From NCBI GenBank assembly GCA_947085375.1, contig CAMTWB010000026.1, positions 7,689-71,688 of the forward strand: a DNA stretch of 64,000 nucleotides, in the 5' to 3' direction. Of this stretch, positions 2,334-63,686 are shown in pieces (within the stretch, counting starts at the first letter, position 1; each line of letters opens with the position of its first letter). A program made the position numbers and the translations under genes. The notes under the pieces were generated by a model, which saw only the letters and a list, made by a program, of their open reading frames with translations, had not been told where the DNA came from and did not search any database. This DNA comes from an uncultured delta proteobacterium. Lineage in GTDB: Bacteria > Desulfobacterota > Syntrophia > Syntrophales > CAMTWB01.

Positions 2334-3515
2334 ATGGTCCTGCGGTTTTGCTTACGCCCTGAGCCAGAAAGTAAGAGAATTAAATTGACCAGAGAAATTA
2401 AGCTTCTTCAGGGAAACCAGGCCATTGCGGCCGGGGCCATCTATGCCGGGGCCCGTTTCTATGCCGGCTATCCCATCACCCCGTCCTCCGAAATCGCCGA
2501 AGAATGCGCCCGCCTTTTGCCCAAGCTGGGCGGGATTTTCCTGCAGATGGAAGACGAGATCGCCTCCATGGGCGCCATCGTGGGAGCGTCGCTCGCCGGT
2601 GCCAAGGCCTTCACTGCCACCTCCGGCCCAGGGTTTTCCCTCATGCAGGAAAACCTGGGGATGGCCATTATGGGTGAGGTGCCCTGTGTGGTGGTCAACG
2701 TCCAACGCTCCGGCCCCAGCACCGGCCTGGCTACCAAACCGGCCCAGGCGGACATCATGCAGATCCGCTGGGGGCGTCATGGCGACCAGTGCCTGATCGC
2801 ACTTACGCCGTCGACTGTCGCCGAGTGCTTTGCCTTTACCGTCATGGCCTTCAATCTGGCCGAGCGTTACCGGGTGCCGGTAGTACTGGCGCCGGACGAG
2901 GTGGTGGCGCACATGCGGGAAAACGTCATTTTGCCCCTGCCGGGCGAGATTCCGGTTATCGACCGCAAAAAACCGTCCGGGCCGCTTGATGCCTACCTAC
3001 CCTTTACCCCCGACGAAGACGGGATTGCCCCACTTGCGGCCTTCGGCAGCCGCTATGTTTTTCACGTCTCGAGCTCCATGCACGGCCCCGATGGCTACAG
3101 CAACAACAATCCCGCCAACGCCGCCCGCAAGGTGGCCCAGCTGCACACCAAAATCGAGCGGCACAAAAACGATATCGTCAAAACAGTCCTCTTTGACGGC
3201 GAAGACGCCGATATTCTCCTCATTGCCACTGGAATCGTCACCCGGACCTGCCGGGAGGCGGCCCGCCGGCTGCGAAAACGGGGATACAAGGTGGGGGTGC
3301 TCCAGATTATTACCCTCTGGCCTTTTCCGGAAGATGAAATTGCCCGGCTGGGCGGACGGGTGAAAAAAGTTCTGGTGGCCGAAATGAACTACAGCGGTCA
3401 ACTGGCGGGAGAAGTCCGTAAAGTGCTTGGAGCCGACAGCAGGGTGATCCAGGTGAACAAATTCAACGGCGAGATGATTTCGCCCACAGAAATTATTGGG
3501 GCGTTGGACCTCTGA
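2334..3515 (+). CDS. korA: 2-oxoacid:ferredoxin oxidoreductase subunit alpha
   Basis: N-terminal LLQGNQAIAAGAIYAGARFYAGYPITPSSEI is typical of KorA/PorA. An alternative TTG start lies about 50 nt downstream. Confidence 0.9.
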   Translation: MVLRFCLRPEPESKRIKLTREIKLLQGNQAIAAGAIYAGARFYAGYPITPSSEIAEECARLLPKLGGIFLQMEDEIASMGAIVGASLAGAKAFTATSGPGFSLMQENLGMAIMGEVPCVVVNVQRSGPSTGLATKPAQADIMQIRWGRHGDQCLIALTPSTVAECFAFTVMAFNLAERYRVPVVLAPDEVVAHMRENVILPLPGEIPVIDRKKPSGPLDAYLPFTPDEDGIAPLAAFGSRYVFHVSSSMHGPDGYSNNNPANAARKVAQLHTKIERHKNDIVKTVLFDGEDADILLIATGIVTRTCREAARRLRKRGYKVGVLQIITLWPFPEDEIARLGGRVKKVLVAEMNYSGQLAGEVRKVLGADSRVIQVNKFNGEMISPTEIIGALDL

Positions 3516-3550
3516 TCAGGCGGTTCTAAGTTGGAAAAACGTAAGTTAAT

Positions 3551-3683
3551 GGAGGGCTTTGTAAAAAGTTCGCAGGCAAGGCGCGCAAGCCCCCTACCCG
3601 AGGAATGAGGCGTACTTTTTGGTACGTCGCAGTGACGAGGGATGTAGCGCAACGCAGAATCCGGACTTTTTACAAAGCAGTCA
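3551..3683 (-). repeat. K-type TIR-bounded repeat (about 130 bp), inverted copy, between korA and korB
   Basis: Its reverse complement aligns almost base for base with 4549..4675. Ends are GGCTTTGTAAAAAGT ... ACTTTTTACAAAGC. Confidence 0.85.
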
Positions 3684-3723
3684 CCTCTGATCGTAAGTTC
3701 GCCCCCTTGACAAGGAGGATCAA

Positions 3724-4551
3724 TTGTCACATGCAACAGGCACGAGGTACCTCAAGGGAGGAGTGCTGCCGCACATGTGGTGTTCCGGCTGCGGTATCGG
3801 CATCGTCCTTGGCGCCCTGCTTAGGGCCTTTGAAGAACTTGGCTACGAGAAGAACAATACCGTTTTAGTCACCGGCATCGGCTGCACCGGGAAGTCCGAT
3901 GATTATCTGGTAACCAACGCCCTGCACGTAACCCACGGACGGGCGCTTACCTTTGCCACGGGGATCAAGGCCTTCAACCCCTTGTTAAACGTGGTGGTGC
4001 TGATGGGCGATGGCGACGCGGTTACCATTGGCGGCAACCACTTCATCCACTCCGCCCGACGCAACATCGATTTGACGGCAATCGTGGTCAATAATTTCAA
4101 TTATGGCATGACGGGGGGGCAGGTGTCAGGCACCACACCATTTGATCATTTTACGACCACCACCTCCTGGGGCAACCCGGAACGGGGGTTTGATATCTGT
4201 CAGGTGGCCATCGCGGCGGGCGCCAATTATGTTGCCCGTGCCACCACCTATCACGGCTGGGAGATGCAAAATCACTTTCGCGAGGCGCTCGTGAAAAAGG
4301 GATTTTCGGTGGTGGAGGCATTCAGCCCCTGCCCCACCCACTACGGCAAGCACAACGACATGAAAGCCGCCGTCCAAATGTTGCGCTGGCTCAAGGAAAA
4401 GGCTCTGACCATTGATGCCTATAATCAACTTCCGCCTGGCCGCCGCGATGATTACTTCCCCATCGGAAAGCTCAAGGAAGGGGACGCCCCTGATTTCAAC
4501 AGTTGCTATGAGGAAATGCGCCGTAGGGCGCTCCAAGATAACCATGAATGA
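3724..4551 (+). CDS. korB: 2-oxoacid:ferredoxin oxidoreductase subunit beta (TPP-binding)
   Basis: Motifs PHMWCSGCGIG and VVLMGDGDAVTIGGNH. TTG start 5 nt after the AAGGAGG Shine-Dalgarno at 3711-3717. Confidence 0.9.
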   Translation: MSHATGTRYLKGGVLPHMWCSGCGIGIVLGALLRAFEELGYEKNNTVLVTGIGCTGKSDDYLVTNALHVTHGRALTFATGIKAFNPLLNVVVLMGDGDAVTIGGNHFIHSARRNIDLTAIVVNNFNYGMTGGQVSGTTPFDHFTTTTSWGNPERGFDICQVAIAAGANYVARATTYHGWEMQNHFREALVKKGFSVVEAFSPCPTHYGKHNDMKAAVQMLRWLKEKALTIDAYNQLPPGRRDDYFPIGKLKEGDAPDFNSCYEEMRRRALQDNHE

Positions 4552-4675
4552 CGACTTCGTAAAAAGTCCGGATGCGGCGTTGCGTTTCATCCCTCGTCAC
4601 TGCGGCGTACCCAAAAGTACGCCTCATTCCTTGGGATTTACGCGCCTTGCCTGCGAACTCTTTACAAAGCCGTCC
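4549..4675 (+). repeat. K-type TIR-bounded repeat, between korB and korC
   Basis: Starts TGACGACTTCGTAAAAAGT and ends ACTCTTTACAAAGCCGTCC. Inner hairpin GGCGTAC-N6-GTACGCC. The first 3 nt are the korB stop codon. Confidence 0.85.
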
Positions 4676-4712
4676 CCAAACCATCGTTTTCTTAACTTTT
4701 TACGAGTTTGTC

Positions 4713-5267
4713 ATGAATGAGCGCCAAAAGAGTGAAAACAAAGAGCGACATGAGGTCATCCTGGCCGGATCAGGCGGACAGGGCCTGGTCTTAGCGGGGA
4801 TCATCCTGGCTGAGGCCGCGATCCGGGATGGTAAAAACGCCGTCCAGACACAATCCTACGGAATCGCCTCGCGGGGCGGCTTCTCGATGGCGGAGGTGAT
4901 TTGCGACCGCTCCGAGATCATCTATCCCCACGTGGAGGCTCCGGATATGATTCTGGCAATGACCGCAGAAGCCCTGCTGAAATACCGGCATTACCTGGAA
5001 AAAGGCTCCTGGCTGCTCTTTGATTCTACATTGGTTGCTGCCGAGGTCGGTGATAAATGTATCGGCCTGCCCTTGACCAAGATGGCCGATGAATTAGGGC
5101 ATGTCGGCGCGGCCAATATTATCGCCTTAGGCGCCATCGCCGCCGCAACCGCCATGGTAACCCGAGACAGTCTGGAAGCCATTATCACTAGCCGTTTTTC
5201 TCCCCGGGCGAGCGAGGTTAATATCAAAGCTCTGGCCCTGGGGGCGACGAGCTTGACGGCGCGTTAA
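4713..5267 (+). CDS. korC: 2-oxoacid:ferredoxin oxidoreductase subunit gamma
   Basis: EVILAGSGGQGLVLAGIILAEAA is typical of the gamma subunit. I chose the ATG at 4713 because the longer ORF from 4572 reads through the repeat. Confidence 0.85.
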   Translation: MNERQKSENKERHEVILAGSGGQGLVLAGIILAEAAIRDGKNAVQTQSYGIASRGGFSMAEVICDRSEIIYPHVEAPDMILAMTAEALLKYRHYLEKGSWLLFDSTLVAAEVGDKCIGLPLTKMADELGHVGAANIIALGAIAAATAMVTRDSLEAIITSRFSPRASEVNIKALALGATSLTAR

Positions 5268-5286
5268 AAAGTCGCAAAATGATTGC

Positions 5287-5520
5287 TTTCTGAGGCCATG
5301 CTTAAGTCATGGCCGCCTGGTCGTTGTCATTTGCTCGCGCCTACACTATAAAACGGACGAGGCGGAGCTCGTCCCTCCGAGAAGACAATGCCCATAGGTT
5401 TTCCTGGAGCCATGTCCACCGGTTTTTCGGAGGGCCATGCTCCGTCATGGCCGTAAGGCGTTGCCGTTTGCCCGCGCTTACACTATAATGCGGACGCGAC
5501 TTAAGCGCGTCCCTCCGAAA
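5287..5520 (+). repeat. REP/BIME-like P-family repeat, two tandem units
   Basis: Units contain the hairpins GGCCATG-N6-CATGGCC and GGACGAG-N6-CTCGTCC (second unit GGACGCG-N6-CGCGTCC), bracketed by CGGAGGG ... CCCTCCG. Confidence 0.8.
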
Positions 5521-5565
5521 TTGAAAAAGGACGTCCTTTTGCCGCGTCATCAAAAAGGAGTAATC

Positions 5566-7194
5566 ATGTCTCATCACCAGGCCGGGGTCAAAAGCCTTCC
5601 CCCCTGCCGGCAGGCCTGTCCGGCAGGGGTAGATGTCCCCCGTTACATCCGCCAGATCCAGGAAGGCCGTTTCAACGATGCCCGCCTTACCGTCAGGGAG
5701 CGTATTCCTTTTTCCGCGGTCTGCGGTTATGCCTGTCTTCACCCCTGTGAGGCCAGGTGTGCCCGAATCCAGTTCGACGAAACGATTGCCATCCGGATGC
5801 TTAAACTGGCCGCGGAAGAATACGGCAAGATCCAGGCCCGTCCGCCGGAGAAACTTCCCCCCTCGGGCCAAAGGATTGCCATCGTCGGTTCCGGCCCGGG
5901 CGGCCTTACCGCTGCCTATTACCTGGCGAAGATGGGCCATTGCCCCGTCATATTCGAGGCCCGGGAGAAAGCGGGGGGACTCCTGCGTTACGGCATACCC
6001 TCCTACCGCCTCCCCCGGGAGGCCCTTGATCTGGAAATAGACCTCATTCGGGCGCACGGCGTCGAGATTCGCCTCAATACCCCCGTTTTTTCCCCTAAGC
6101 AGCTTTTTGACGATGGTTTCACCGCCGTTCTATTGGCGGTAGGCGCCTGGCAGCCCCTGGGCATGGGCATCCCCGGGGAAGATTCACCCCTGGTGGTGGA
6201 TGGTTTGTCGTTCTTAAGAGCGGTCAATGCCGGCAGCCAGCCCGCAATGGATAGGAAACGAGTCCTGGTGGTGGGCGGAGGAAACACCGCTATCGATGCC
6301 GCAAGATCATCGCGCCGCCTGGGTGCGGAAGCAACCATCCTCTACCGCCGCCGCAGGGAGGATATGCCGGCCAGTGACGAAGAGATCGAGGATGCCCTGG
6401 AGGAAGGTGTTGCGATCATGTCGCACACCCTCCCGGTCGCCGTTTTCGGCCAGGAGGTAACCTGCCAGAAGATGACCGAAGGCCCGCCGGACGCAAGTGG
6501 CCGTCCCACCCCACTGCCCCAGCCGAGAAGCGACTTTATCATAACCGCCGACCTCATCGTTGTTGCCATCGGCCAAAGAGGCATGGCGGCAAAGCTGGCC
6601 GTGGAGGAAACCGGGGGTGGCCGGGTTAAGGTTGATCCGGAGACTTGCGCCACCTCCACCCAGGGCCTTTTTGCCGCCGGCGACGCGGTACTGGGGCCAG
6701 CGAGCATTATCGACGCCATTGCCCAGGGGAGAAAAGCCGCCGCCGCAATCGACAGGTTTCTGGGCGGTGCCGGCAATATCGACCAGGATACACCGGCTAC
6801 CGCAGGAGAAGCACCAGACGCAGTCCCACGGGGGGTTGCCCGGGCTAAAAGGAAAAAGGCGCCGCCACAGGAAAGATTACAAGGCTTTAACCCGGTGGAG
6901 CAGGTGTTTGAGCGGGTGGTCGCAATCGGTGAGGCGGGGCGCTGCCTGTCTTGCGATCTGCGAGACTTTGACGTCAGCGTCAACGATCAACTCTGCAAGG
7001 AATGCGGTTTCTGTCAGGAAGTTTGTTCCTTGAGCGTTTTTGAAACCTCCGATTCCTTCAACGTTCAGGGATACCGGCCGACCCTGGTCAAGAGCGACGC
7101 CCGTTGCATCGGTTGTCTGAGCTGCCTTTACATCTGCCCGGATTTTGCAATCACGATCCGGGATGGGAAAGTGGAGGGCCGAGTAAATAATTGA
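5566..7194 (+). CDS. GltD-family NAD(P)H-dependent oxidoreductase with C-terminal 2x[4Fe-4S] ferredoxin domain
   Basis: N-terminal Cys cluster (CRQACPAG...CGYACLHPCEARC). Dinucleotide folds IAIVGSGPGGLTAAYYL and VLVVGGGNTAIDAA. C-terminal CKECGFCQEVC and CIGCLSCLYICP. ATG at 5566 follows AAAGGAG. Confidence 0.85.
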   Translation: MSHHQAGVKSLPPCRQACPAGVDVPRYIRQIQEGRFNDARLTVRERIPFSAVCGYACLHPCEARCARIQFDETIAIRMLKLAAEEYGKIQARPPEKLPPSGQRIAIVGSGPGGLTAAYYLAKMGHCPVIFEAREKAGGLLRYGIPSYRLPREALDLEIDLIRAHGVEIRLNTPVFSPKQLFDDGFTAVLLAVGAWQPLGMGIPGEDSPLVVDGLSFLRAVNAGSQPAMDRKRVLVVGGGNTAIDAARSSRRLGAEATILYRRRREDMPASDEEIEDALEEGVAIMSHTLPVAVFGQEVTCQKMTEGPPDASGRPTPLPQPRSDFIITADLIVVAIGQRGMAAKLAVEETGGGRVKVDPETCATSTQGLFAAGDAVLGPASIIDAIAQGRKAAAAIDRFLGGAGNIDQDTPATAGEAPDAVPRGVARAKRKKAPPQERLQGFNPVEQVFERVVAIGEAGRCLSCDLRDFDVSVNDQLCKECGFCQEVCSLSVFETSDSFNVQGYRPTLVKSDARCIGCLSCLYICPDFAITIRDGKVEGRVNN

Positions 7195-11818: not shown

Positions 11819-12107
11819 AGTAAGGGCGGTGTTACCTAAGAAGAGATGCCGCCCTTCGATTAAGGTGAACTGGGATGTTCGGCCCGAAGCCTGCTTCACC
11901 ACCTTGGAGAAAGCGGATAACTCATTTGCTACTAAACCGGACATATCTATTTGCTGCTAACAGGAGCTAAGAAAAACGAGAAACAATGTGTCTGCACCGC
12001 CTCGGTGCGACAATGGGTTGCCCACATTTTTGTCGCAAAGCCGCATCTTTATGAACTTGACTTTACCGACGGCGCTGTTATTATGCCTCCCAACCAGAGG
12101 CTATTCA

Positions 12108-14360
12108 ATGTACGATCACATCAGACAATATTTCCGTACCTCACCATTGCAAATAGCTATATTTATAGTTATTTCTCTTTTGATCCTCTTTTTCTTCGAT
12201 ATTGCTTTTCTCAGGTATATGGAATTAAGAACATACGACCTGCGGATGGTCTATCGCGGTGAGAGGACGATTGGCAAGGAAACGGCAGTTGTGGCCATTG
12301 ATGAGAAGAGCTTGACGGAATTGGGTCGTTGGCCTTGGTCCCGTGCGACAATGGCGGAGTTGCTAAATGCCGTGAAGGCCGAGGGAGTCAAGGCCATCGG
12401 CTTTGATATAATTTTTTCTGAGTCTGAAGACAACCCGGGGATCAAGGCACTCAAGGACATATCTGATCAACTCGCAAAACAAAAGCTGCTAAACAATTCA
12501 CTACAGGAGATGATCCGGGAGAAAAAAAGGCAACTGGATACGGATGCCCTTCTTGCCGATGCCATTGGGGCGGCAGGCAATGTTACCTTGGGATATCTGT
12601 TTTATTTTTCTTCGTCCGAGGTGCGACACTTAAGTGAAGAAGAGATATCCCGCAATGCCGAAAACATTGCCTCCGGCCAATATGGGGTGGTCCAGTACCG
12701 GCGAGCGCCCGAACCGGGCAATCTGTTTGAAGCCCGGGCTCCCCTGGCAAATGTGGGAGAACTGTCTTCACGAGCGGAAAATTGCGGTTTTTTCAATGCC
12801 TTTCCGGATAATGACGGGACAATCAGGTGGTCGCCCTTGGTCATCGCCTTCCGGGATAAATATTATTCCTCGCTGGCTGTTTCCCTGCTGATGCAGTATC
12901 TCGACTGGCCGGATCTCCGGCTCAAGCTCGATTCCTTCGGCGTGTCGGGAATTACGATCGGAGATCGGCTGATACCAACCGATCACCAGGGCCGGATGCT
13001 GATAAACTACCTGGGCCAGGATAACGTAGTACCTCACTACTCGGCTGTTGATGTCATCCGGGGCCGAATCCCTCCGGGAGAGCTCAAAGACCGGATGGTA
13101 ATTATCGGCGCCACAGCAATCGGCATCTACGATCTGCGGGTTACGCCCTTCAGTCCGGTTTCAGCAGGGGTTAATATCCATGCCACCGTGGTTGACAACA
13201 TTCTCCGCCGGTCGTTCATTGTTCAGTCTTTCTGGACCTCCCTGATTGATATTTTAGCCATCATTTTGCTGGGTTTGGTCACCGGCTTATTTGTTTCCCG
13301 CCTGCGGGCAGTTCCCGCCTTTGGCTTGACCGCCGGTCTGACCATTTCCTTCATCCTGGTCAATTACTTTATATTCTCAAGGCTTAGTATCTGGCTAAAC
13401 CTTGTCTACCCGCTCTTGTCGATCTTGTTTTCCTATATGGGCATTACGGTATATAAATTCCTGGCGGAAGAAAAAGAAAAGAAGAAGATCCGCTCGGCCT
13501 TTCAATACTATCTCACCTCTTCGGTTATCAACGAGATGCTCAAGGATCCCTCCAAACTTCGCTTGGGGGGCGAGAAGAAGGAACTGACGGTGCTCTTCTC
13601 GGATATCCGGGGCTTTACCTCGGTATCGGAGGTCCTGACGCCAGAAGAATTGGTGCACCTCTTGAATGAGTACTTAACCGCGATGACGGATTTGGTATTC
13701 AAGTACGATGGCCTATTGGACAAGTATATGGGCGACGCCATCATGGCGGTATATGGAGCGCCGTTGGATCAGCCGGACCACCCGGCTCGGGCCTGCAATA
13801 CTGCGCTGGAGATGCTATCAGTTCTTGATGTTTTGCGGGAAAAATGGCGCCAGGAGGGACGGCCGGATCTCGATATCGGTATCGGGATCAGCAGCGGCCC
13901 GATGGTAGTGGGCAATATGGGTTCCCGGATGAGGTTTGACTATACCGTCATGGGAGACATGGTCAACCTGGGCTCCCGACTGGAAGGGCTCAACAAGGTC
14001 TATGGAACCCGGATAATTGTCAGTCAATATAGCCGTGAGCTGGTTCTGAACCAATTTGTTTTAAGAGAACTTGATTTGGTGCGGGTCAAGGGCAAGGCGA
14101 TTCCGGTCAAGATCTACGAGCTTTGTGGGACGCAATCCGATACCGATAAAGATACTCGCAAATTTATCAGTCTATTTGAAGATGCACTGGCCAGGTACCG
14201 AAACTCTATTTGGGATGAGGCGTTACGGCTATTCCAGGAGGCTCTTGTTATACGACCCAATGATGGGCCGACCATGCTTTATTTGGCCCGAGTCGAGCAA
14301 CTTAAGATCCATCCGCCGGCCCCTGATTGGGACGGCGTCTTTACTATGGAGTCCAAATGA
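12108..14360 (+). CDS. CHASE2-domain class III adenylate/guanylate cyclase
   Basis: CHASE2 signature VVAIDEKSLTELGRWPWSR...GFDIIFSE, then TM segments, then the cyclase core LTVLFSDIRGFT...GDAIMAVYGAP...GNMGS. ATG chosen at 12108. Confidence 0.85.
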   Translation: MYDHIRQYFRTSPLQIAIFIVISLLILFFFDIAFLRYMELRTYDLRMVYRGERTIGKETAVVAIDEKSLTELGRWPWSRATMAELLNAVKAEGVKAIGFDIIFSESEDNPGIKALKDISDQLAKQKLLNNSLQEMIREKKRQLDTDALLADAIGAAGNVTLGYLFYFSSSEVRHLSEEEISRNAENIASGQYGVVQYRRAPEPGNLFEARAPLANVGELSSRAENCGFFNAFPDNDGTIRWSPLVIAFRDKYYSSLAVSLLMQYLDWPDLRLKLDSFGVSGITIGDRLIPTDHQGRMLINYLGQDNVVPHYSAVDVIRGRIPPGELKDRMVIIGATAIGIYDLRVTPFSPVSAGVNIHATVVDNILRRSFIVQSFWTSLIDILAIILLGLVTGLFVSRLRAVPAFGLTAGLTISFILVNYFIFSRLSIWLNLVYPLLSILFSYMGITVYKFLAEEKEKKKIRSAFQYYLTSSVINEMLKDPSKLRLGGEKKELTVLFSDIRGFTSVSEVLTPEELVHLLNEYLTAMTDLVFKYDGLLDKYMGDAIMAVYGAPLDQPDHPARACNTALEMLSVLDVLREKWRQEGRPDLDIGIGISSGPMVVGNMGSRMRFDYTVMGDMVNLGSRLEGLNKVYGTRIIVSQYSRELVLNQFVLRELDLVRVKGKAIPVKIYELCGTQSDTDKDTRKFISLFEDALARYRNSIWDEALRLFQEALVIRPNDGPTMLYLARVEQLKIHPPAPDWDGVFTMESK

Positions 14361-14399: not shown

Positions 14400-16352
14400 A
14401 TGGCGATGTCAGAATCTAATTACCGCAGTTGGGTCGAGGTTGATCTCGATTGCTTCACCCAGAACTGGGAAGAGATGAAACGCCTGGCCAAGCCTGGGGT
14501 GAAGATCATGCAGGTTCTCAAGGCGGATGCTTATGGTCATGGTGCAATTGAGATTGCCAATGTTGCCTTGCGCAATGGTGCGGCCTGCCTGGGCGTTGCC
14601 AATGCCGATGAAGCGGTCCAGCTTCGGGTGAGTGGTCTCATTGTTCCGATCCTCATCCTGAGTCCTTCACTGCCGGCGGAAATAGGAGAGATAATAAAGT
14701 ATAATCTGGTGTCCTCCATTTCCGACGAATCATTCGCCCATCAACTCCAAACGCGATGTCAGACGGCGGGGATTCGAATTCCGGTGCACCTGGAAGTCGA
14801 TTCCGGCATCGGCCGGGCCGGCATAAGCTCGGATAAGGCGCTCGACGTCATCCGTAAGATCAACAAGATGCCCAACCTATTTCTGGAGGGTATCTTTACC
14901 CACCTATCGATAAGTGAAACTTCCGATGAATATAATCTGCGGCAGTGGCGGAATTTCAGTCAGCTGTTGAACATTCTTTCCCGGGAAGGCATTAATATTC
15001 CGATCAGGCATATGGCCAACAGCGGGGCCATGATAAATTACCCGGAATTTCAACTGGATATGGTAAGACCGGGACTGATGTCGTACGGCATATTTCCCAC
15101 CGCTGAGTCAGTCGGCCGGATTCGCATTAAGCCGGTAATGACCTTCAAAACCCGTATTCTTTTGATTAAGGAGTTTCCCGCTGGCGCAAGCATCGGCTAT
15201 GGTCGTTCCTATACCACGACTAAAACAACCCGGATAGCCACCATCCCGGTCGGCTACGGCGATGGATATGGTTTTGTCCTTTCCAACCGGGGCGAGGTTC
15301 TGGTGGCGGGCAGGAGGGTGCCGGTGGTGGGCCGGGTCTCGATGGATTTGTGTACCATAGACATAACCGGCCTGCCTGAGTGCGACGTCGGCACCGAAGT
15401 CGTTCTCCTGGGAAGGCAGGGCAAAGAATACATCTCCGCAAATGAGATAGCTGACAAGGTGGGAAGCATCAGTTACGAGGTTCTCTGTGCCTTGGGCAAA
15501 AGGGCGCCGCGGATATTTCTTAAGCAGGGCCTAGTCGGCGCCACAGAGCCACGACTAAGGCGCATCTTCATTCCCGATGAGGAGCGGTCGCTCTCCCGGA
15601 TCGACAATATCATCAGGAGCTGCCTCCATACCCGCGCCAAGAGCGTCGGTTTCGGAGACGCCATCTATTACGAGATGTTAGAGACCCTATTTGGAAAAGA
15701 TGACCGCCAACTGGAATTAAGATCGGATTTTCGCTACGATATAACTGTAGCCCCATCCGATGAAGTTGAACATGGCCGCTCTGGTCAGGATACAGAATAT
15801 CTGAACGTAATAACCCATATCGAATATCGGAAGGTTCTCAAAAACCACTTGTTCATGATTGGATGCGCCAGCAATAATGACCAACTGGCAGCTTTCTTCG
15901 AAGATCCCCGCTGCCAGTATCGCTGGCTTTTAGGCAATGGGGAAGACCTGGAGGCACCGCGGGATTTTCAGGTGACAGCGGTAAGAGTGGACGGACAAGG
16001 GGTTCCCATCGAGGAAGCCACGACATCCGAACGGGGATACGAGGTCTGGGCCGGAGGCGATTGCCTGCGCGAGAAGATTCACCGGCAGGTACGCATCGAG
16101 ATTGAAATAGTAACGAAACAATCCCGGAAGAAAAGAGATTTTTCCGTCCATATCGTCTATCCTACTCAAGGTCTAGAGATAAACTTCAATTACGCTAAGA
16201 CGGGTCTGAAAAATGTCCGGGAGGTAAGTTTCTTCTCTGGCCGACGTCCCTATCCGCAGGTCTGCAGGGAAGAGGGTAGGGCGATCAAGGTCGTTGTTTC
16301 CAAGGATGAATGGGTATTCCCCCACAGCGGGGTCACGTTTATTTGGGATTGA
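14400..16352 (+). CDS. alr: alanine racemase fused to an unknown C-terminal domain of about 275 aa
   Basis: Residues 1 to about 375 are Alr (PLP-Lys motif VLKADAYGHG, GYGDGY, GRVSMDLCTIDIT, YEVLCALGKRAPRIF). Residues about 376-650 match nothing I recognise. Confidence 0.85.
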   Translation: MAMSESNYRSWVEVDLDCFTQNWEEMKRLAKPGVKIMQVLKADAYGHGAIEIANVALRNGAACLGVANADEAVQLRVSGLIVPILILSPSLPAEIGEIIKYNLVSSISDESFAHQLQTRCQTAGIRIPVHLEVDSGIGRAGISSDKALDVIRKINKMPNLFLEGIFTHLSISETSDEYNLRQWRNFSQLLNILSREGINIPIRHMANSGAMINYPEFQLDMVRPGLMSYGIFPTAESVGRIRIKPVMTFKTRILLIKEFPAGASIGYGRSYTTTKTTRIATIPVGYGDGYGFVLSNRGEVLVAGRRVPVVGRVSMDLCTIDITGLPECDVGTEVVLLGRQGKEYISANEIADKVGSISYEVLCALGKRAPRIFLKQGLVGATEPRLRRIFIPDEERSLSRIDNIIRSCLHTRAKSVGFGDAIYYEMLETLFGKDDRQLELRSDFRYDITVAPSDEVEHGRSGQDTEYLNVITHIEYRKVLKNHLFMIGCASNNDQLAAFFEDPRCQYRWLLGNGEDLEAPRDFQVTAVRVDGQGVPIEEATTSERGYEVWAGGDCLREKIHRQVRIEIEIVTKQSRKKRDFSVHIVYPTQGLEINFNYAKTGLKNVREVSFFSGRRPYPQVCREEGRAIKVVVSKDEWVFPHSGVTFIWD

Positions 16353-50616: not shown

Positions 50617-52104
50617 GTGGATAAATACCGGATATTAGTTGTAGATGATTATCAACCGACGCGTAATCTGATTACGGAAGCGCTGGGACAATGCGCCAAA
50701 TACGAAACAGCGGAAGCTGAAAATGGGTCAATCGCCCTTGAGCTCTTTAAAAAATATTCCTTCGATTTGGTCATCTCGGACGTCATGATGCCCCAGGTGA
50801 GCGGCATGGATCTACTGCCCGCGCTGATAGCAATCTCACCTGTAACCCCGGTCATCATGATGACCGCCCATACGGCGCCGGAAATGACCGTCACGGCGTT
50901 AAAAAACGGTGCCGTTGATTTTCTGCAAAAACCTTTCGATATCGACGAACTCCTCTTTAAGGTTGACATCTATCTGCGGAATAGACCCCGCTGCACTCCT
51001 GATGCCGTCCAGGACCAGCCACAGCACTTGCCGTTCATTGCCGGCATGAAGGATGATCTGGCGATACAGCAGTACATTTACGACTCAATTGAGCAGGCCA
51101 GCGGCGCCAATGAGGAAATATTAGAAAAAATCGTTGATCTGGCGCTGAAGGTGGTAAGCGGGGACACCGCCTATCTGCTGCTTTATGATCAGAAACAGGA
51201 TGAAATCCAGCTACAGGCTATGAGATCAAAAAATGGACAGCCCACGCCATCAAGCCAATTGCGTCTTTGGACTTTCATGTTTCAAGAGGTTATGGACAAA
51301 CCCACAGGCCTGATCCTGCACCACGAAGATCATCCCGAAGTTTCACGTTCGTTAATCTGCTCCCCCTTGATGATCCGCGGCCGGGTATTTGGCCTTCTGG
51401 TGGTCACGAAAAGTCCTGCTGCCCAGATATTTTCCCGCAAAGAGCTTCATTATCTGCAGACCATAACGATAAGGGCCGCTCTCAATCTGGAAAACACAAT
51501 GCTCTACGAGAGCATCTACGGCAATGTGATCGATACCTTCCAATCGCTCATAGCCTCAATTGAGGCCAGAGACCATTATACCCAGACCCATTCACTGCGG
51601 GTAGCCAAAAATGCGCTGTCTATCGGCCGGATATTAAATTTACCCCTGGGCAGCCTGGAATCGCTTAAAATTGCCTCTTTGCTCCACGATATTGGAAAGA
51701 TTTCCATCCCCGACTCGATATTGCTTAAAGCCGGCAGGCTCTCCACAGAGGAATATCAAGTCATGAAAAATCACAGTAGCGTCGGGGAGAGCATCATCCG
51801 GCCCATCGCTCTTTTGGACCGGGAACAGAAGATCGTCCGTCATCATCACGAAAGATGGGATGGCGCAGGCTATCCCGACGGCCTGGCCGGTGAAGAAATA
51901 CCGATCATGGCCCGCATATTGACAGTGGCCGACAGCTACGACGCCATCGTCACGAACCGTCCCTACCGGCAGGCAATGGCAATGGATTGGGCCTTGGAAG
52001 AGATTCAACGGGGCCGGGGAAGCCAGTTCGATCCGGCTGTTGTGGACGCCTTTTTAAGCCCGGAAAGTCAGGCTGTGGTGAGAGCCGGCTCTCTGATGTG
52101 CTGA
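50617..52104 (+). CDS. response regulator with GAF-like and HD-GYP domains (putative c-di-GMP phosphodiesterase)
   Basis: Receiver domain ILVVDD...DLVISDVMMP...QKP. HD-GYP motifs LLHDIGK and HHHERWDGAGYPDGL. GTG start. Confidence 0.9.
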   Translation: MDKYRILVVDDYQPTRNLITEALGQCAKYETAEAENGSIALELFKKYSFDLVISDVMMPQVSGMDLLPALIAISPVTPVIMMTAHTAPEMTVTALKNGAVDFLQKPFDIDELLFKVDIYLRNRPRCTPDAVQDQPQHLPFIAGMKDDLAIQQYIYDSIEQASGANEEILEKIVDLALKVVSGDTAYLLLYDQKQDEIQLQAMRSKNGQPTPSSQLRLWTFMFQEVMDKPTGLILHHEDHPEVSRSLICSPLMIRGRVFGLLVVTKSPAAQIFSRKELHYLQTITIRAALNLENTMLYESIYGNVIDTFQSLIASIEARDHYTQTHSLRVAKNALSIGRILNLPLGSLESLKIASLLHDIGKISIPDSILLKAGRLSTEEYQVMKNHSSVGESIIRPIALLDREQKIVRHHHERWDGAGYPDGLAGEEIPIMARILTVADSYDAIVTNRPYRQAMAMDWALEEIQRGRGSQFDPAVVDAFLSPESQAVVRAGSLMC

Positions 52105-57332: not shown

Positions 57333-58616
57333 ATGAATAAAATGGCCATCCACGCCGCCGTCATGGTTTTTTTATCTTACTTTTATCTACCAGCGGCTGC
57401 GATTTCAAGCGATACGAACCAACCTTTTGGCAAGGGCAATGGAAGAACGCCGGTTGGCCCAGTTCTGTCGGTCAATCCCACCACAATTGATCTGGGTGCA
57501 GTTGCCATCGGCGAAAAGATTACCGGACAGATAAAGATACGCAATACCGGAACGGAAGTCCTGCGCTGGACGGCGGCGATCCCCGCTAAGCCCCAGATTA
57601 ATCCTGTGAATGCTGCAAAGGACGGCAGATTTATCTCCTTTCAAAACCGGAACGTGGCGGCAACAGGAGTTTATCTGCCTCCTGCCCACATCCGGGAACA
57701 GCTGGATGTTACCGGTAGGTGGTCTGAGGAAGATGGCTACCCGCTTGGCCTACCCCCCTCGGCTACCCTCAGGTTTCGCTTTTCCGGACCCGCCGTTACG
57801 TTAGTAAACATGCGGAAGTCAGAAGAGGGAGCTCTGGCGGTTTTGATTGATGACCAGCCCATTATCTTCCCCCGCGATCATGAGGAGGGAAGCGGGTACC
57901 TCGATCCGCATATGATTCAAGGCTTGTCTGACACCCAGCATACCCTTACCGTTATCAGCAGGGATGCCCAATTTATCATGGAAGGCGTAAAGACGTTCGG
58001 CCGGGAATCGAGCAGGTTCCCGGCAGGAGCAGTCAGGGTATTTCCCCGCAGCGGTATAACCACCCGCGAGACAGACTATCTGACAATCAGCATAGACACT
58101 CGCAACCTCAACCCTGGCCTGTATTTGGAATATCTGGAGCTTTCCTCCAACTCCGGCCAGGAAACGGTATTGATGTACTGCGACGTTTTTTCAACGGGAG
58201 GAACCAAACTCCTTGATGTTTATCGCTATGTTAAAGATAGGGAGTACCTGTTTACGACAAATCTCCAGGCGGACGGCAAAAAGATATTTGTCAACGGCTA
58301 CGCGAACCAGGGAATCGCCTTTCAGCTTTTCCCGCCTGGCGCTCCCGGCACTACAGAATTTTTCCGCTGGTATAATCCGCATAAGGCGGACTATTTCTAT
58401 TCCTATCAGCGTCAGGGAGGAAGCAAATTACTTTCCGGCTACATCTTTGAGGGCGCCATCGGCAATATTGCCACCTCCCGGATTGCCGGCGCACGCCCCC
58501 TGCACCGCTGGCTCAACAAAAAGACGGGACGTTACTTTTTTACCGTGGATCCTAAAGGCGAAGATATTAATAAACACGGCTACAGTTACGACGGAATTGC
58601 CGGATTCGTCAGGTAA
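57333..58616 (+). CDS. secreted protein with Ig-like N-domain and three C-terminal aromatic repeats
   Basis: Signal peptide MNKMAIHAAVMVFLSYFYLPAAA. LSVNPTTIDLGAVAIGEKITGQIKIRNTGTEVLRW resembles choice-of-anchor-D/ASH-type Ig domains. Three Y/F-rich repeats (YRYVKDREYLFT, FFRWYNPHKADYFYS, LHRWLNKKTGRYFFT). Confidence 0.7.
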   Translation: MNKMAIHAAVMVFLSYFYLPAAAISSDTNQPFGKGNGRTPVGPVLSVNPTTIDLGAVAIGEKITGQIKIRNTGTEVLRWTAAIPAKPQINPVNAAKDGRFISFQNRNVAATGVYLPPAHIREQLDVTGRWSEEDGYPLGLPPSATLRFRFSGPAVTLVNMRKSEEGALAVLIDDQPIIFPRDHEEGSGYLDPHMIQGLSDTQHTLTVISRDAQFIMEGVKTFGRESSRFPAGAVRVFPRSGITTRETDYLTISIDTRNLNPGLYLEYLELSSNSGQETVLMYCDVFSTGGTKLLDVYRYVKDREYLFTTNLQADGKKIFVNGYANQGIAFQLFPPGAPGTTEFFRWYNPHKADYFYSYQRQGGSKLLSGYIFEGAIGNIATSRIAGARPLHRWLNKKTGRYFFTVDPKGEDINKHGYSYDGIAGFVR

Positions 58617-58928: not shown

Positions 58929-59005
<77 letters not shown>

Positions 59006-59009
59006 TAAT

Positions 59010-59087
59010 GGTGGGTGTAGCTCAGCTGGTTAGAGTGCCGGGTTGTGGCCCCGGAGGTCGAGGGTTCGAATCCCTTCACTCACCCCA
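59010..59087 (+). tRNA. tRNA-His (anticodon GTG)
   Basis: Extra 5' G(-1), acceptor GTGGGTG/CACTCAC, anticodon arm CCGGG-TTGTGGC-CCCGG, T-loop GGTTCGAATCC, encoded CCA. Confidence 0.9.
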
Positions 59088-59104
59088 TTATTTCATCTTA
59101 CCAA

Positions 59105-59181
59105 GCGCCCGTAGCTCAGCTGGATAGAGTGGCAGACTTCGAATCTGCAAGTCGTAGGTTCGAATCCTACCGGGCGCGCCA
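59105..59181 (+). tRNA. tRNA-Arg (anticodon TCG)
   Basis: Acceptor GCGCCCG/CGGGCGC, anticodon arm GCAGA-CTTCGAA-TCTGC, T-loop GGTTCGAATCC, encoded CCA. Confidence 0.9.
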
Positions 59182-59851: not shown

Positions 59852-61741
59852 TTACATCCACCGGTCTGAGCGGGCCTTGGCTTCGTATTCTTCGCGCAGG
59901 GCAATCTGGGTGGCTTCAGCGATGTCCTCGACCCTTTTAACCCAGTCCTCGAATTTAATATCTACCCCGAAAATACCAGCGATTTCGTCCTTGTCGTCAG
60001 TGATAGGGGCCGAAGCGGTGATACAAAGGGCGCCGGTCATTTTGGAAATGTAGAAATTGGTAACGTGCATCTTCCCCGTCTGCATGGGTTTGATGAACCA
60101 CTCACGGTCCGACTGATCAGTGCCCACCCCATAGTTTTCATACTTAGCCCGATCGGTGATGTTGGTGATGTTCTTCGTGGTCTTCTTCCCGTTGGTATTA
60201 ACCACATAGGCAAACTGGATGGATGGATTTTCCTCGATCATCTTCTGCATTACCGGTTCCTGCAGTTCGGGCTTCATAGTTTTCATTACCGGATGCTCGA
60301 TCACCTGGCTCACAACGGATATGGCGGCCTCGGCGGCCCTCATCTTGATCTTGTCCAGTTCGGACATGAAGAGTTCCGGGATATACTTGCGCACCAGCCT
60401 GTCCATTTCTTCATGGGAAATACTGGTTACCCGTCCGCTTTCGTATTGTTCAGTCACCCATTTATGGATTTTTGAGACACCCGGATGCCGTTTATCCACC
60501 TCAACTTCACTCCTAAGACCCAAGCGCTGGTTTATCCAGTATACAATGCCGGACTTGCCGGATTTGTCGGTAATCGTGGCAATTATCGGCCGCTTCAATA
60601 TCAGTCTGGTATCGAAGATATTGTATATTTCCTCGTTTTTGATGAGACCGTCGATGTGTACGCCGGCCATAGTGACGTTGAAATCGGCGCCGACAAAGGG
60701 AGTAGCGGGTGGAATCTTCACCCCCACTTCCTTTTCAAAGTATTCGGCGATATCCGTAATTACACAGGTATCTATTCCATTTGTTTTACCAAGCAGACTG
60801 ATATATTCGATGATCAGGGCTTCTATCGGCGGATTGCCGGTTCGCTCTCCCATTCCCAGCAAGGTGGAGTTGGCGGCGGAGCAGCCATAAAGCCAGGCGG
60901 TGACGGCGTTCACCAGGGCCTTGTAAAAATCGTTATGGCCATGCCATTCCAAGAGCTGCCCGGGTACGCCGGCATCATCGATAAATGCCCGCACCAGCTT
61001 ATCCACACTCCGGGGCAGGGCGGCACCGGGATAGTTGACACCGTAGCCCAGTGTATCGCAAAGGCGGATCTTGATGTCGATGCCGCTCTCTTCCCGAAGC
61101 TTCATTAATTCGATGGCAAAGGGGATGCAAAAGCCGTAGATATCGGCTCTGGTAAGATCCTCGAGATGACAGCGGGGCGTTATCCCTGCCTCCAGGATTG
61201 AGCGGACAATCTTCAGGTAATCCGCGAGTGCCTCAGCTCGGTTCTTCCCCATCTTAAGATAGATATGATAGTCCGATGCGGACGTTAGGATGCCGGTTTC
61301 CCTGAGGCCCGCATTCTTAACCAGTTGGACGTCATCGCTGTTTGCCCTGATCCAGCCGGTTATTTCCGGGAATTTAAGGCCCAGTTCCCGGCATTTATCA
61401 ACCGCCTCCCGATCCTTGTTACTGTACAAGAAAAATTCGGTCTGACGGATTACACCGTTTGGACCGCCTAAGGCGCCCATTAATTTATAAAGAGCCACAA
61501 TCTGGTTAACTGTATAGGGAGGCCGGGCCTGCTGGCCGTCGCGGAAGGTGGTGTCGGTAATAAAGATTTCTTCCGGCGGCCTGATGGAAAGAAGCTTATG
61601 ATCGAAATCGATCCGGCTGACATCGCTGTAGGGAAACACGTCCTTCTGGAGATTTGGCTCGACTACGTTTATTAGGCCGTACTTCCAGTGGGGGCTGTGT
61701 TCGTGATCAAGTACTCTTAAGTCTTTGTTCCAGCGGGGCAT
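59852..61741 (-). CDS. HMGL-family synthase (isopropylmalate/homocitrate/Re-citrate synthase-like) fused to a C-terminal Cache/PAS-like domain
   Basis: ITDTTFRDGQQ catalytic motif, TIM-barrel core through HGHNDF. The C-terminal ~170 aa (FAYVVNTNGKK...DREWFIKPMQTGKMHVTNFYISKMTGALCITASAPITDDKDEIAGIFGVDIKF) has a Cache-like pattern. Confidence 0.8.
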   Translation of the reverse strand: MPRWNKDLRVLDHEHSPHWKYGLINVVEPNLQKDVFPYSDVSRIDFDHKLLSIRPPEEIFITDTTFRDGQQARPPYTVNQIVALYKLMGALGGPNGVIRQTEFFLYSNKDREAVDKCRELGLKFPEITGWIRANSDDVQLVKNAGLRETGILTSASDYHIYLKMGKNRAEALADYLKIVRSILEAGITPRCHLEDLTRADIYGFCIPFAIELMKLREESGIDIKIRLCDTLGYGVNYPGAALPRSVDKLVRAFIDDAGVPGQLLEWHGHNDFYKALVNAVTAWLYGCSAANSTLLGMGERTGNPPIEALIIEYISLLGKTNGIDTCVITDIAEYFEKEVGVKIPPATPFVGADFNVTMAGVHIDGLIKNEEIYNIFDTRLILKRPIIATITDKSGKSGIVYWINQRLGLRSEVEVDKRHPGVSKIHKWVTEQYESGRVTSISHEEMDRLVRKYIPELFMSELDKIKMRAAEAAISVVSQVIEHPVMKTMKPELQEPVMQKMIEENPSIQFAYVVNTNGKKTTKNITNITDRAKYENYGVGTDQSDREWFIKPMQTGKMHVTNFYISKMTGALCITASAPITDDKDEIAGIFGVDIKFEDWVKRVEDIAEATQIALREEYEAKARSDRWM

Positions 61742-61883: not shown

Positions 61884-63686
61884 CTACAAAGCGGCTTTCT
61901 TTGGGTTATGAGGCGTCTGGGAGACAATCTTGATGGATAGCTCCATCAACTGCTCTAAAGATACCTTGGAAGGTGCGCCACTAAGGAGACAGCCGGCTTT
62001 CTGCGTTTTGGGAAACGCGATGACGTCCCGGATGGATTCGGCGCCGGCCATGAGCATTACCATCCGATCCAAACCGAAAGCTATCCCGCCGTGGGGAGGG
62101 GCGCCATACTGAAGGGCTTCCAGGAAAAACCCGAATTTTGAATCCAGATCTGCTTCGGTAAGTCCCAGGGCTGTGAATATCTGTGCCTGAACTTCCCGGC
62201 TGTGGATACGGATACTTCCCCCACCGATTTCCGAACCGTTGAGCACCAGGTCATAGGCGCGCGCCCTTACCCGGGTCGGATCGGTCAAAAGGTAGGGCAG
62301 GTCCTCCAAATACGGCGAGGTAAAAGGATGATGGGTGGAAACATACCTCTTGTCAGTCTCGCTGTACTCCATCAAGGGAAACTCGGTTACCCAGGTGAAG
62401 GAGAACTTGGCGTTATCGATCAGGTTAAGTTTCTTGGCCAGGTGCAGCCGCAGGTTTCCCAGAGCGGCGTTGACCACGCCGACTGAATCGGCCAAAATAA
62501 AGATCAACGATCCCTCGCGGGCGGACAGCCTTTCGTTGATGGTAGCGATCTCAGTGTGTTTGAGGTGTTTGGCAACCGGTGATGCCCAGCCCTCGGAATT
62601 AACACGCGCCCAGGTTAGCCCCCTTGCCCCATGGGTCGCAACGAAGTCCTTCAAATCATCCAGCTCCTTGCGGGAAAAGGCGCTGCCTTCTTCGATCATG
62701 ATGGCCTTGATGATGCCTCCCCGGGCAATGACCTCGCGAAAAAGCTGAAAATCACATTGCTCCAGGATATCTGTTAAGTCATGGAGGTAGAGGGCAAAGC
62801 GGGTGTCCGGATTGTCTTTGCCGTAACGGCTCATGGCTTCCTGATAGGTCAGGCGGGGGAAGGGCAGGGAAAGATTGCGGGCCATACAGGTTCGGAAGAG
62901 CTCCCCAAAAAGGCGCTCGATCACCGCAATGATGTCTTCTTCGTCGCAGAAGGACATTTCCACGTCAATCTGGGTGAATTCCGGCTGCCGGTCCGCCCGA
63001 AGGTCTTCGTCACGAAAGCATTTGACTATCTGGTAATAGCGGTCAAAACCGGAAACCATCAGAAGTTGCTTGAACAATTGCGGCGACTGGGGCAGGGCGT
63101 AGAAGAGCCCCTGATTGATACGGCTGGGAACCAAGTAATCACGGGCTCCTTCCGGGGTACTCTTGGTTAGAAAAGGCGTTTCCACCTCCAGAAACCCTTC
63201 CTGTTGGAAATAATTACGCACTGTTGCCGCAACCAGACTCCTCAAAATTATATTTTTTTGCAGCTCGGATCGCCTGAGATCAAGATAACGGTATTGCAAA
63301 CGGATATTTTCGGATGTTTCGTTTGAGCCATCCAGCGGAAAGGGAGGAGTCTTGGCTTCATTGAGAACCTGGAAAGATTTAACCAGGATCTCTATTTCAC
63401 CAGTGGTCATATCCGGGTTTGCCATTCCGGATGGTCGCATGCGAACCCGTCCCTCCAGGGCCAGTACAAATTCACTTCGAATAGACTTCGCCGCATCATC
63501 CATTTCATCCGGGGTAATTACCGCCTGCACCAGGCCAGTACGATCACGAAGATCGACAAAAATGACACCTCCGTGGTCTCGGCGGCGATGCACCCAGCCC
63601 ATCAGTACCACATCGCGACCAAGATCGGCTGGTCTTAAGTTTCCGCAATAGTCGGTGCGTTTTAAGTCCTTTATAAATTCACTCAC
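61884..63686 (-). CDS. aspS: aspartate--tRNA ligase
   Basis: [22 protein letters not shown], class II motifs [18 protein letters not shown] and [13 protein letters not shown]. 600 aa. Confidence 0.95.

Follow-up and report, generated by a model that had tools for sequence, protein, structure and literature searches.

One gene in a 64,000-nucleotide stretch of DNA from an uncultured delta proteobacterium of the Syntrophales (GenBank assembly GCA_947085375.1, contig CAMTWB010000026.1, positions 7,689 to 71,688; the whole stretch is called the window below) raises a simple question: what does a Cache sensor domain do at the end of a soluble enzyme of the LeuA and homocitrate synthase superfamily? 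We have analysed the gene, its product and its relatives, and the answer comes in parts of different strength. The gene product is very probably a Re-citrate synthase (EC 2.3.3.3) of the Syntrophus type, judging from its sequence. For the protein as a whole, the explanation towards which we lean is a Re-citrate synthase with an allosteric Cache module and a putative amino-acid-like effector. That is, it would be a metal-dependent, Claisen-condensing enzyme of the DRE-TIM type that forms citrate from acetyl-CoA and oxaloacetate, and in strict anaerobes such an enzyme would feed the oxidative branch of the tricarboxylic acid (TCA) cycle towards 2-oxoglutarate and glutamate. The gene and the parts of its product are arranged as follows.

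59852..61741, minus strand: complete gene of the predicted long-form Re-citrate synthase; ATG start, 629 amino acids, stop codon at 59852-59854 in the list of open reading frames (ORFs)
61565..61741, minus strand: N-terminal extension, residues 1-59, of lower conservation; residues 11-18 have low model confidence
60743..61564, minus strand: HMGL-like (DRE-TIM) catalytic barrel, residues 60-333; Pfam PF00682, E 2.7e-28; predicted local distance difference test (pLDDT) mostly >90
61529..61561, minus strand: clade signature ITDTTFRDGQQ, residues 61-71, with R67 and D68 as the substrate and metal residues
60935..60943, minus strand: metal-binding HxH motif H267-G-H269, aligned to HGH of citramalate synthase (CimA) and HAH of homocitrate synthase (HCS); invariant
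60362..60742, minus strand: helical subdomain II and linker, residues 334-460, with a weak HCS_D2 match; the short clostridial forms stop here
59933..60361, minus strand: cytoplasmic single PDC/Cache domain, residues 461-603, made up of one long helix at the N-terminus, a pair of short helices and a beta-sheet core
59855..59932, minus strand: C-terminal helix, residues 604-629, found in the Syntrophales subgroup only

The preliminary description of this DNA, made from the letters alone, had reported an HMGL barrel carrying ITDTTFRDGQQ, with Phe and Gln in place of Leu and Glu, and the ORF, the Pfam match and the alignment have all confirmed it. F66 and Q70 stand where LeuA, NifV and CimA have Leu and Glu. 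When aligned by HMMER to solved structures, the signature falls on 'LDVTLRDGEQ' of citramalate synthase and 'LDSTLREGEQ' of homocitrate synthase, and this alignment indicates that both changes are real. It occurs without variation in 99 long forms and in all intact sequences of 75 loci, and its TTFRDGQQ part is common to CKL_0973 of Clostridium kluyveri, to CAC0970 and to the C. thermocellum homologue. The catalytic set R67, D68, H267 and H269 (the two histidines lie in EWHGHNDF, residues 265-272) is intact in the alignment to CimA and HCS and is invariant among the long forms. The full-length AlphaFold model has a pLDDT of 85.7, and its best Foldseek matches are homocitrate, methylthioalkylmalate, isopropylmalate and citramalate synthases, at an identity of only 18-25%. 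The calculated mass of the protein is 71.2 kDa. Opposite-strand ORFs within the gene (60065-61108) were dismissed as spurious, because the minus-strand protein is strongly conserved.

For the identity of the enzyme, reference Re-citrate synthase sequences were taken from Table S1 of PMC12016533, a passage of which terms the C. kluyveri and Syntrophus aciditrophicus enzymes 'known and isolated' Re-citrate synthases. The window protein is at least 71% identical to SYN_02536 of S. aciditrophicus over residues 1-629, Cache domain included; the value is a lower bound because the SYN_02536 sequence came from optical character recognition text with lost letters. With CKL_0973 the identity is 47% over residues 19-470, where the clostridial enzyme ends. 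The N-terminus of SYN_02536 is the same (MAKWNPQKRVLNHEH...), and its presence in both proteins supports the start codon. In a neighbour-joining tree of the catalytic core, the window protein and SYN_02536 are grouped with 100% bootstrap, all Cache-bearing forms sit in the crown group with the window protein, and the clostridial Re-citrate synthase clade (98%) is adjacent. NifV and LeuA lie far away, as does the second type of Re-citrate synthase, which resembles NifV (Heliomicrobium, Dehalococcoides). Support for the deep branches of this tree is weak, and we claim neither a single gain nor multiple losses of the Cache domain. The NCBIfam equivalogs nifV, LEU1_arch and IPMS give ~130 bits each with cutoffs >460; this sets the protein apart from the standard homocitrate, isopropylmalate and citramalate synthases.

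Based on the above comparisons of sequence, we take the window gene to be orthologous to that of the isolated S. aciditrophicus Re-citrate synthase, SYN_02536; at this identity, S. aciditrophicus SB itself was rejected as the source of the window. The preliminary description had proposed a homocitrate- or Re-citrate-synthase-like enzyme; the enzyme family stands, while the homocitrate option is disfavoured and the protein is not an uncharacterised hybrid. SYN_02536 (Kim et al. 2013, J Bacteriol 195:1689) is of the same length class, with barrel, helical subdomain, Cache domain and C-terminal helix, and has the same catalytic signature and pocket residues (DREWF, FYISKMTGALC, GIFGVDI). It differs in its organism and in ~29% of residues, and the window protein is known from sequence only. 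CKL_0973 (Li et al. 2007), CAC0970 and the C. thermocellum protein form a neighbouring clade with the same core, TTFRDGQQ and EWHGHNDF included, but are short forms of ~445-465 amino acids that end before the Cache domain. Since the proven C. kluyveri enzyme lacks this domain, catalysis does not require the Cache tail. Neither the enzyme nor its architecture is new, as the characterised ortholog has both and databases annotate both domains. The recombinant S. aciditrophicus enzyme is reportedly a homotetramer of ~73-kDa subunits, a size that fits the 629-residue architecture plus a tag.

More than 8000 database proteins match the window protein. The best 120 matches are all of ~629 amino acids, combine HMGL and PDC domains at 75-93% identity, and come from Syntrophales-type metagenome-assembled genomes (MAGs). 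Counting one genome per species and matches through about residue 600, the long form is present in at least 593 species genomes, from Syntrophales, other Thermodesulfobacteriota, Desulfovibrionaceae, Nitrospirota, Omnitrophota and Lentisphaerota to Elusimicrobiota, Spirochaetales, Armatimonadota, Odoribacter and Termititenax. Its occurrence in so many proteins and species genomes shows that the fusion did not arise from an error of assembly. Starting from the most divergent long form, a further search brought up at least 120 additional long forms, and in a library of representatives at 50% identity, long forms of 593-615 amino acids stand beside short forms of ~440-476 that end at query residue 455-460. 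Some homologues are named 'citrate (Re)-synthase' by JGI, and newer NCBI annotation labels some long forms 'cache domain-containing protein'.

Several relatives carry other additions on the same core. One has an N-terminal response-regulator receiver and no Cache domain (P0123; 599 amino acids, 58% identical), two have a C-terminal ACT domain (P0176 and P0200; 607 and 623 amino acids), and one of 833 amino acids has a C-terminal ATP-grasp/L-amino-acid-ligase domain (P0145). The most divergent long form (P0126; 593 amino acids, 44-46% identical) has a His replacing the pocket Arg; it is labelled as a Nanoarchaeota MAG, which possibly reflects either an archaeal occurrence or a binning error. 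Among family members in NCBI, P0009, P0012, P0021, P0036, P0126 and others included, many are named 'histone-lysine N-methyltransferase' and one 'triose-phosphate isomerase'; these names look like propagated misannotations of Re-citrate synthase.

What, then, is the tail? The Cache/PAS-like pattern that had been noticed in it (YVVNTNGKK, DREWF, HVTNFYISKMTGALCITASAPI, GIFGVDIKF) is present in full, and it belongs to a PDC fold. Pfam MCP-like_PDC_1 (PF22673) matches residues 496-599 with E 1.2e-13 (51.9 bits, gathering score 27), and a dCache_1 match below threshold covers profile positions 45-153 only. Residues 462-606 modelled alone (AlphaFold2, 24-sequence alignment) form one PDC unit with a pLDDT of 92 and a predicted TM-score of 0.87. 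Against the PDB, Foldseek returned PDC/Cache sensor domains with E down to 4e-10, well past what chance would give. The pyruvate sensor KinD is the best of them, with a query TM-score (TMq) of 0.70, and the amino-acid sensor Tlp3 follows at 0.63-0.66; further matches include histidine kinase sensors of Methanosarcina, WalK, Mlp37, DcuS, CitA, PctA/B and the cytoplasmic YkuI, and for KinD, Tlp3, PctA, DcuS and CitA the TMq is 0.6-0.7. An ordinary LeuA-type regulatory fold, named beforehand as the outcome that would speak against a Cache domain, was ruled out: LeuA_dimer (PF08502) gives no Pfam match to the window protein even at E<=1, and the 50 listed Foldseek matches to the C-terminal model are all of the PDC/Cache type, with no LeuA regulatory domain among them.

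The domain is also cytoplasmic, in agreement with the preliminary description. No hydrophobic segment is found in the window protein, its maximum 19-residue Kyte-Doolittle mean being 1.10, and this hydropathy rules out a secreted or membrane-anchored Cache domain. Typically, Cache domains are extracytoplasmic and lie between two transmembrane helices (78% of Cache domains); the small YkuI_C and Diacid_rec are the only Cache families that are not principally extracellular, and Cache domains are partnered with signal-transduction outputs (PMC4822843). According to Pfam, the window protein has no signal-transduction output domain, the HMGL-like enzyme being the only other domain. For the superfamily, a soluble Cache domain attached to an enzyme of central metabolism is thus atypical, though abundant in sequence databases. 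The closest parallel in layout is YkuI (EAL plus YkuI_C, PDB 2BAS/2W27), in which a cytoplasmic Cache-like domain is C-terminal to a barrel-type enzyme domain, and whose YkuI_C family is principally intracellular (PMC4822843); its partner, however, is a cyclic di-GMP signalling domain and not a central-metabolic enzyme. The family profile matches 2BAS with E 1.5e-6, the Foldseek TMq is 0.55, and some homologues carry PF10388 (YkuI_C), of which the window protein itself has no Pfam match at E<=1.

The argument for a ligand comes from the pocket. In the published amino-acid motif of dCache_1 sensors, Y121, R126 and W128 of PctA hold the ligand carboxylate and Y144 and D173 hold the amino group; 13-17 residues separate the two halves and ~27-34 lie between Tyr and Asp, and the D173A mutation of PctA abolishes binding (Gumerov et al. 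2022, PMC8915833). According to a follow-up study, R126 is lost and D173 retained in amine-only sensors, and the aromatic Y129 has a structural role and makes no ligand contact. We searched the profile of the domain against PDB sequences and aligned it to PctA, Tlp3 and KinD. Its 'sdReWF...dlYtS...giDikf' aligns to 'RSRPWY...EPYVD...GGDLSL' of PctA and 'KTKDWY...PAYLD...GVDIPS' of Tlp3, which places three elements in the window gene.

60095..60106, minus strand: R546-E-W548-F549, equivalent to PctA R126-P-W128-Y129 in the profile alignment; 95-100% conserved; carboxylate-binding half of the motif
60044..60052, minus strand: Y564-I-S566, equivalent to PctA Y144-V-D146 and to KinD Y-S-S in the profile alignment
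59960..59962, minus strand: D594, equivalent to PctA D173 in the profile alignment; invariant in 99/99 and 75/75 sequences

Residue by residue, R546, W548, F549, Y564 and D594 correspond to R126, W128, Y129, Y144 and D173 of PctA, with spacings of 14 and 29 residues that are inside the published ranges. Phe at 549 is a conservative replacement, since Y129 is structural and does not touch the ligand. In KinD, the counterpart of R546 is the arginine replaced in the R131A entries. With R546 and D594 both retained, the pocket points to a ligand that carries a carboxylate as well as an amino group. Compared with the dCache_1AA sensors (PctA, Tlp3, Mlp24/37), whose membrane-distal module shares the fold, the aligned R-x-W-aromatic, Tyr and Asp and the spacing, the window domain is single, cytoplasmic and without transmembrane helices, lacks the first Tyr, and has a metabolic enzyme as its output rather than a kinase, a methyl-accepting chemotaxis protein or a cyclase.

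These positions are under strong conservation. In an alignment of 99 long forms that are 44-93% identical to the window protein, the mean identity is 55% in the PDC region and 69% in the barrel. W548, S566 and D594 are nevertheless present in 99/99 sequences, F549 in 97, R546 in 95 and Y564 in 94, and by conservation the six aligned motif positions take ranks 2-16 of 143 (permutation p < 1e-5). The 75 sequences drawn from labelled genomes all have W548, F549, S566 and D594, and R546 is kept in 72, Y564 in 63. Around this constant frame, the pocket varies by lineage. Syntrophales, Nitrospirota and similar lineages have T522, E/T/D/S541, K/R567 and K/R596, whereas Desulfovibrionaceae and Odoribacter have C/A/Q522, mostly Tyr541, Q/H567 and Q596, with the full Y-x4-R-x-W. 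The second, distinct pocket was seen at loci L057-L072, L077 and L080 (Desulfovibrionaceae-, Bilophila-, Mailhella- and Odoribacter-type), and its residues suggest an effector that is other, or bound otherwise, than in the Syntrophales type. The covariation of positions 522, 541, 567 and 596 by lineage points to a tuned ligand pocket and not a passive scaffold.

Taken together, the Cache domain is probably a ligand-binding regulatory domain. It would be placed where LeuA, CimA and some homocitrate synthases have their amino-acid feedback domains, and a cytoplasmic effector bound by it would alter the activity by way of the long helix (461-481), which extends subdomain II. That the ligand is of amino-acid type is suggested more tentatively, from the motif; the effector would then be an amino acid or a close analogue, with glutamate (the end product) and aspartate (oxaloacetate proxy or transamination partner) as candidates, and the extra basic residues 567 and 596 of the window lineage could take a second carboxylate. 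In its fullest form the proposal reads that a cytoplasmic amino-acid sensor, derived from a distal dCache_1AA module, exerts feedback on the entry to the glutamate-forming TCA branch; we offer this only as a possibility, and a slightly less secure one. Precedent exists in the superfamily: LeuA, CimA and the homocitrate synthases (LeuA_dimer; RAM in the Sulfolobus HCS) share the DRE-TIM fold, the metal site and a regulatory domain after subdomain II, and are controlled by the amino-acid end product of their own pathway. Leucine-bound LeuA, lysine-bound HCS and an HCS construct lacking RAM are among the structural neighbours found by Foldseek. These enzymes are, on the other hand, only 18-25% identical to the window protein, whose C-terminal domain has an unrelated PDC/Cache fold. 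The ligand-sensing allosteric domain of the preliminary description is therefore kept as a regulatory module with an amino-acid-binding motif, and its allosteric control stays inferential.

Several points weigh against this explanation as a whole. The first motif Tyr (PctA Y121) is T541 in the window protein and is absent in most lineages (E/D/T), Y564 varies in 12 of the 75 sequences, and the best fold match, KinD, binds pyruvate and not an amino acid. The dCache_1AA sensors have a double module, the window protein a single one. The motif may partly reflect dCache_1 ancestry. It was first noticed through conservation, which means that the rank test above is not fully independent. No aconitase or isocitrate dehydrogenase (IDH) gene lies beside the Re-citrate synthase gene in the window. 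Our literature and full-text searches, which did not extend to the primary enzyme papers (these may discuss the tail), found no binding or kinetic data on the Cache domain of any family member and no paper linking Re-citrate synthase and Cache; nor was a report of Re-citrate synthase regulation found in the literature searched.

Some of these points would suit a sensor whose ligand is a carboxylic acid from central metabolism (pyruvate, 2-oxoglutarate, citrate, malate or oxaloacetate), comparable with KinD, DcuS, CitA and DctB. KinD of Bacillus subtilis (PDB 4JGO/4JGP, pyruvate-bound) is not only the leading fold match but also the second-best profile match; its Y-S-S-R-I-T-G is close to the Y-x-S-K/R-x-T-G that begins at Y564, its R131 is the residue aligned with R546, and DcuS and CitA are fold matches too. 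The additional basic residues at 567 and 596 in most lineages and the missing first Tyr are in line with such a ligand. KinD, however, is an extracytoplasmic sensor of two modules in which neither the Trp nor the final Asp is present; these two residues (W548 and D594) are invariant in both of our sequence sets. As D173 is the amino-group contact in amino-acid and amine sensors alike, and a buried invariant Asp is hard to square with a purely anionic ligand, we regard the carboxylic-acid sensor as unlikely and keep the amino-acid-like effector as the preferred one.

A domain with no small-molecule ligand at all, which would serve oligomerisation or stability, for example by building a tetramer through the long helices, appears more unlikely still. 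PAS/PDC domains do often dimerise through their N-terminal helices, the short forms function with no Cache domain, and the S. aciditrophicus enzyme is said to be homotetrameric. Yet the top conservation in the Cache domain falls on the canonical pocket positions and not on the helices, and the pocket positions co-vary by lineage. Moreover, the same core bears ACT or receiver domains in relatives from other lineages, and regulation is for this reason favoured over scaffolding.

The surroundings of the gene bear on the enzyme assignment rather than on the ligand. Its neighbours in the window are the following.

61884..63686, minus strand: aspS (aspartyl-tRNA synthetase, by Pfam), directly upstream on the same strand; a conserved neighbour
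58929-59181, plus strand: tRNA cluster Arg(TCT)-His(GTG)-Arg(TCG), convergent with the 3' end of the Re-citrate synthase gene

Directly upstream and on the same strand, aspS is found in 39/80 related loci, with hisS next upstream in 28, and the aspS and Re-citrate synthase arrangement also occurs in two independent sequencing runs. The order hisS-aspS-Re-citrate synthase is kept across several Thermodesulfobacteriota orders and beyond; a link between aspartate or oxaloacetate and this aspS neighbourhood is only a thought. Near the gene, the Rfam search found three tRNAs only and no riboswitch or cis-regulatory RNA, and scans for sigma-70 promoters and terminators gave nothing above background. 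Weak Rfam 'Plastid-ycf2' matches opposite two of the tRNA genes do not reach the gathering cutoff and appear to be fortuitous.

Downstream on the same strand, an NADP-isocitrate dehydrogenase gene that passes the NCBIfam equivalog cutoff is present in 11/80 related loci (adjacent in 8), and a large subunit of the aconitase/isopropylmalate (IPM) dehydratase family in 9/80 (adjacent in 4). Since these neighbours make up the route from citrate through isocitrate to 2-oxoglutarate, they support the assignment of the long-form family independently. An alternative identity as homocitrate, citramalate or isopropylmalate synthase, the regulatory domain then being an unusual one, is very improbable: the top NCBIfam matches of the protein are the nifV, LEU1_arch and IPMS models, JGI names many homologues 'isopropylmalate/homocitrate/citramalate synthase', and the downstream genes belong to the aconitase/IPM dehydratase and isocitrate/IPM dehydrogenase families, but the NCBIfam scores are far below their cutoffs, the identity to CimA, HCS and IPM synthase structures is far lower than to the two proven Re-citrate synthases, TTFRDGQQ is specific to the Re-citrate synthase clade, and the downstream dehydrogenase passes as NADP-IDH.

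The window also carries the genes that had been read as korABC and as fitting this metabolism.

2334-5267, plus strand: 2-oxoacid:acceptor oxidoreductase (alpha, beta and gamma subunits; NCBIfam), the earlier 'korABC'

Its alpha subunit passes a generic equivalog, and beta and gamma match best the 2-oxoglutarate and 2-oxoacid types, below cutoff. The oxidoreductase is compatible with the proposed metabolism, yet it is unlinked to the Re-citrate synthase gene: an operon link was rejected, as the two lie ~55 kb apart with unrelated genes between. The three genes are followed by one for a 585-residue GltD-like Fe-S flavoprotein that binds NAD(P) and is similar at its C-terminus to the delta subunit of 2-oxoglutarate:ferredoxin oxidoreductase; together (2334-7194, plus strand) they may form a module for 2-oxoacid oxidoreduction linked to NAD(P)H. 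ATP synthase subunit a, rather than a kor subunit, is encoded at 1665-2318.

Elsewhere in the window, four plus-strand genes were recorded. A CHASE2-adenylate/guanylate cyclase is encoded at 11988-14360. The alanine racemase ORF at 14400-16352 has 650 amino acids, of which two racemase domains span residues 14-372 only, leaving a C-terminal extension of ~280 amino acids with no assigned domain, and it lies directly upstream of the D-Ala-D-Ala ligase gene. At 50617-52104, a receiver-GAF-HD-GYP protein is encoded beside flagellar genes (~36-50 kb), and at 57333-58616, between dprA and the tRNA cluster, a 427-residue protein with a hydrophobic N-terminus and a C-terminal DUF5648.

Overall, what is new here is that the Cache pocket of this enzyme keeps the dCache_1 amino-acid motif. 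The function of the tail appears unstudied, and the hypothesis is specific and testable: the natural tail-less form of C. kluyveri serves as a control, and one family member has reportedly been produced in E. coli. The members misnamed 'histone-lysine N-methyltransferase' could also be re-annotated.

Re-citrate synthase is the entry to glutamate synthesis in many strict anaerobes, including syntrophs, sulfate reducers, Nitrospirota, Omnitrophota and gut Desulfovibrionaceae. If the enzyme does have an amino-acid-responsive switch, this would explain how these organisms throttle the flow of acetyl-CoA into biosynthesis. It would make the Cache domain an allosteric module of a central-metabolic enzyme and not the input of a signalling protein, and would add to the LeuA/HCS/CimA superfamily a feedback domain recruited independently, the fourth beside LeuA_dimer, RAM and ACT. 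The universal amino-acid motif would then extend from membrane receptors to a soluble metabolic enzyme, and the pocket variants (Tyr541/Gln596 versus Glu541/Lys-Arg596) would imply different effectors in different phyla.

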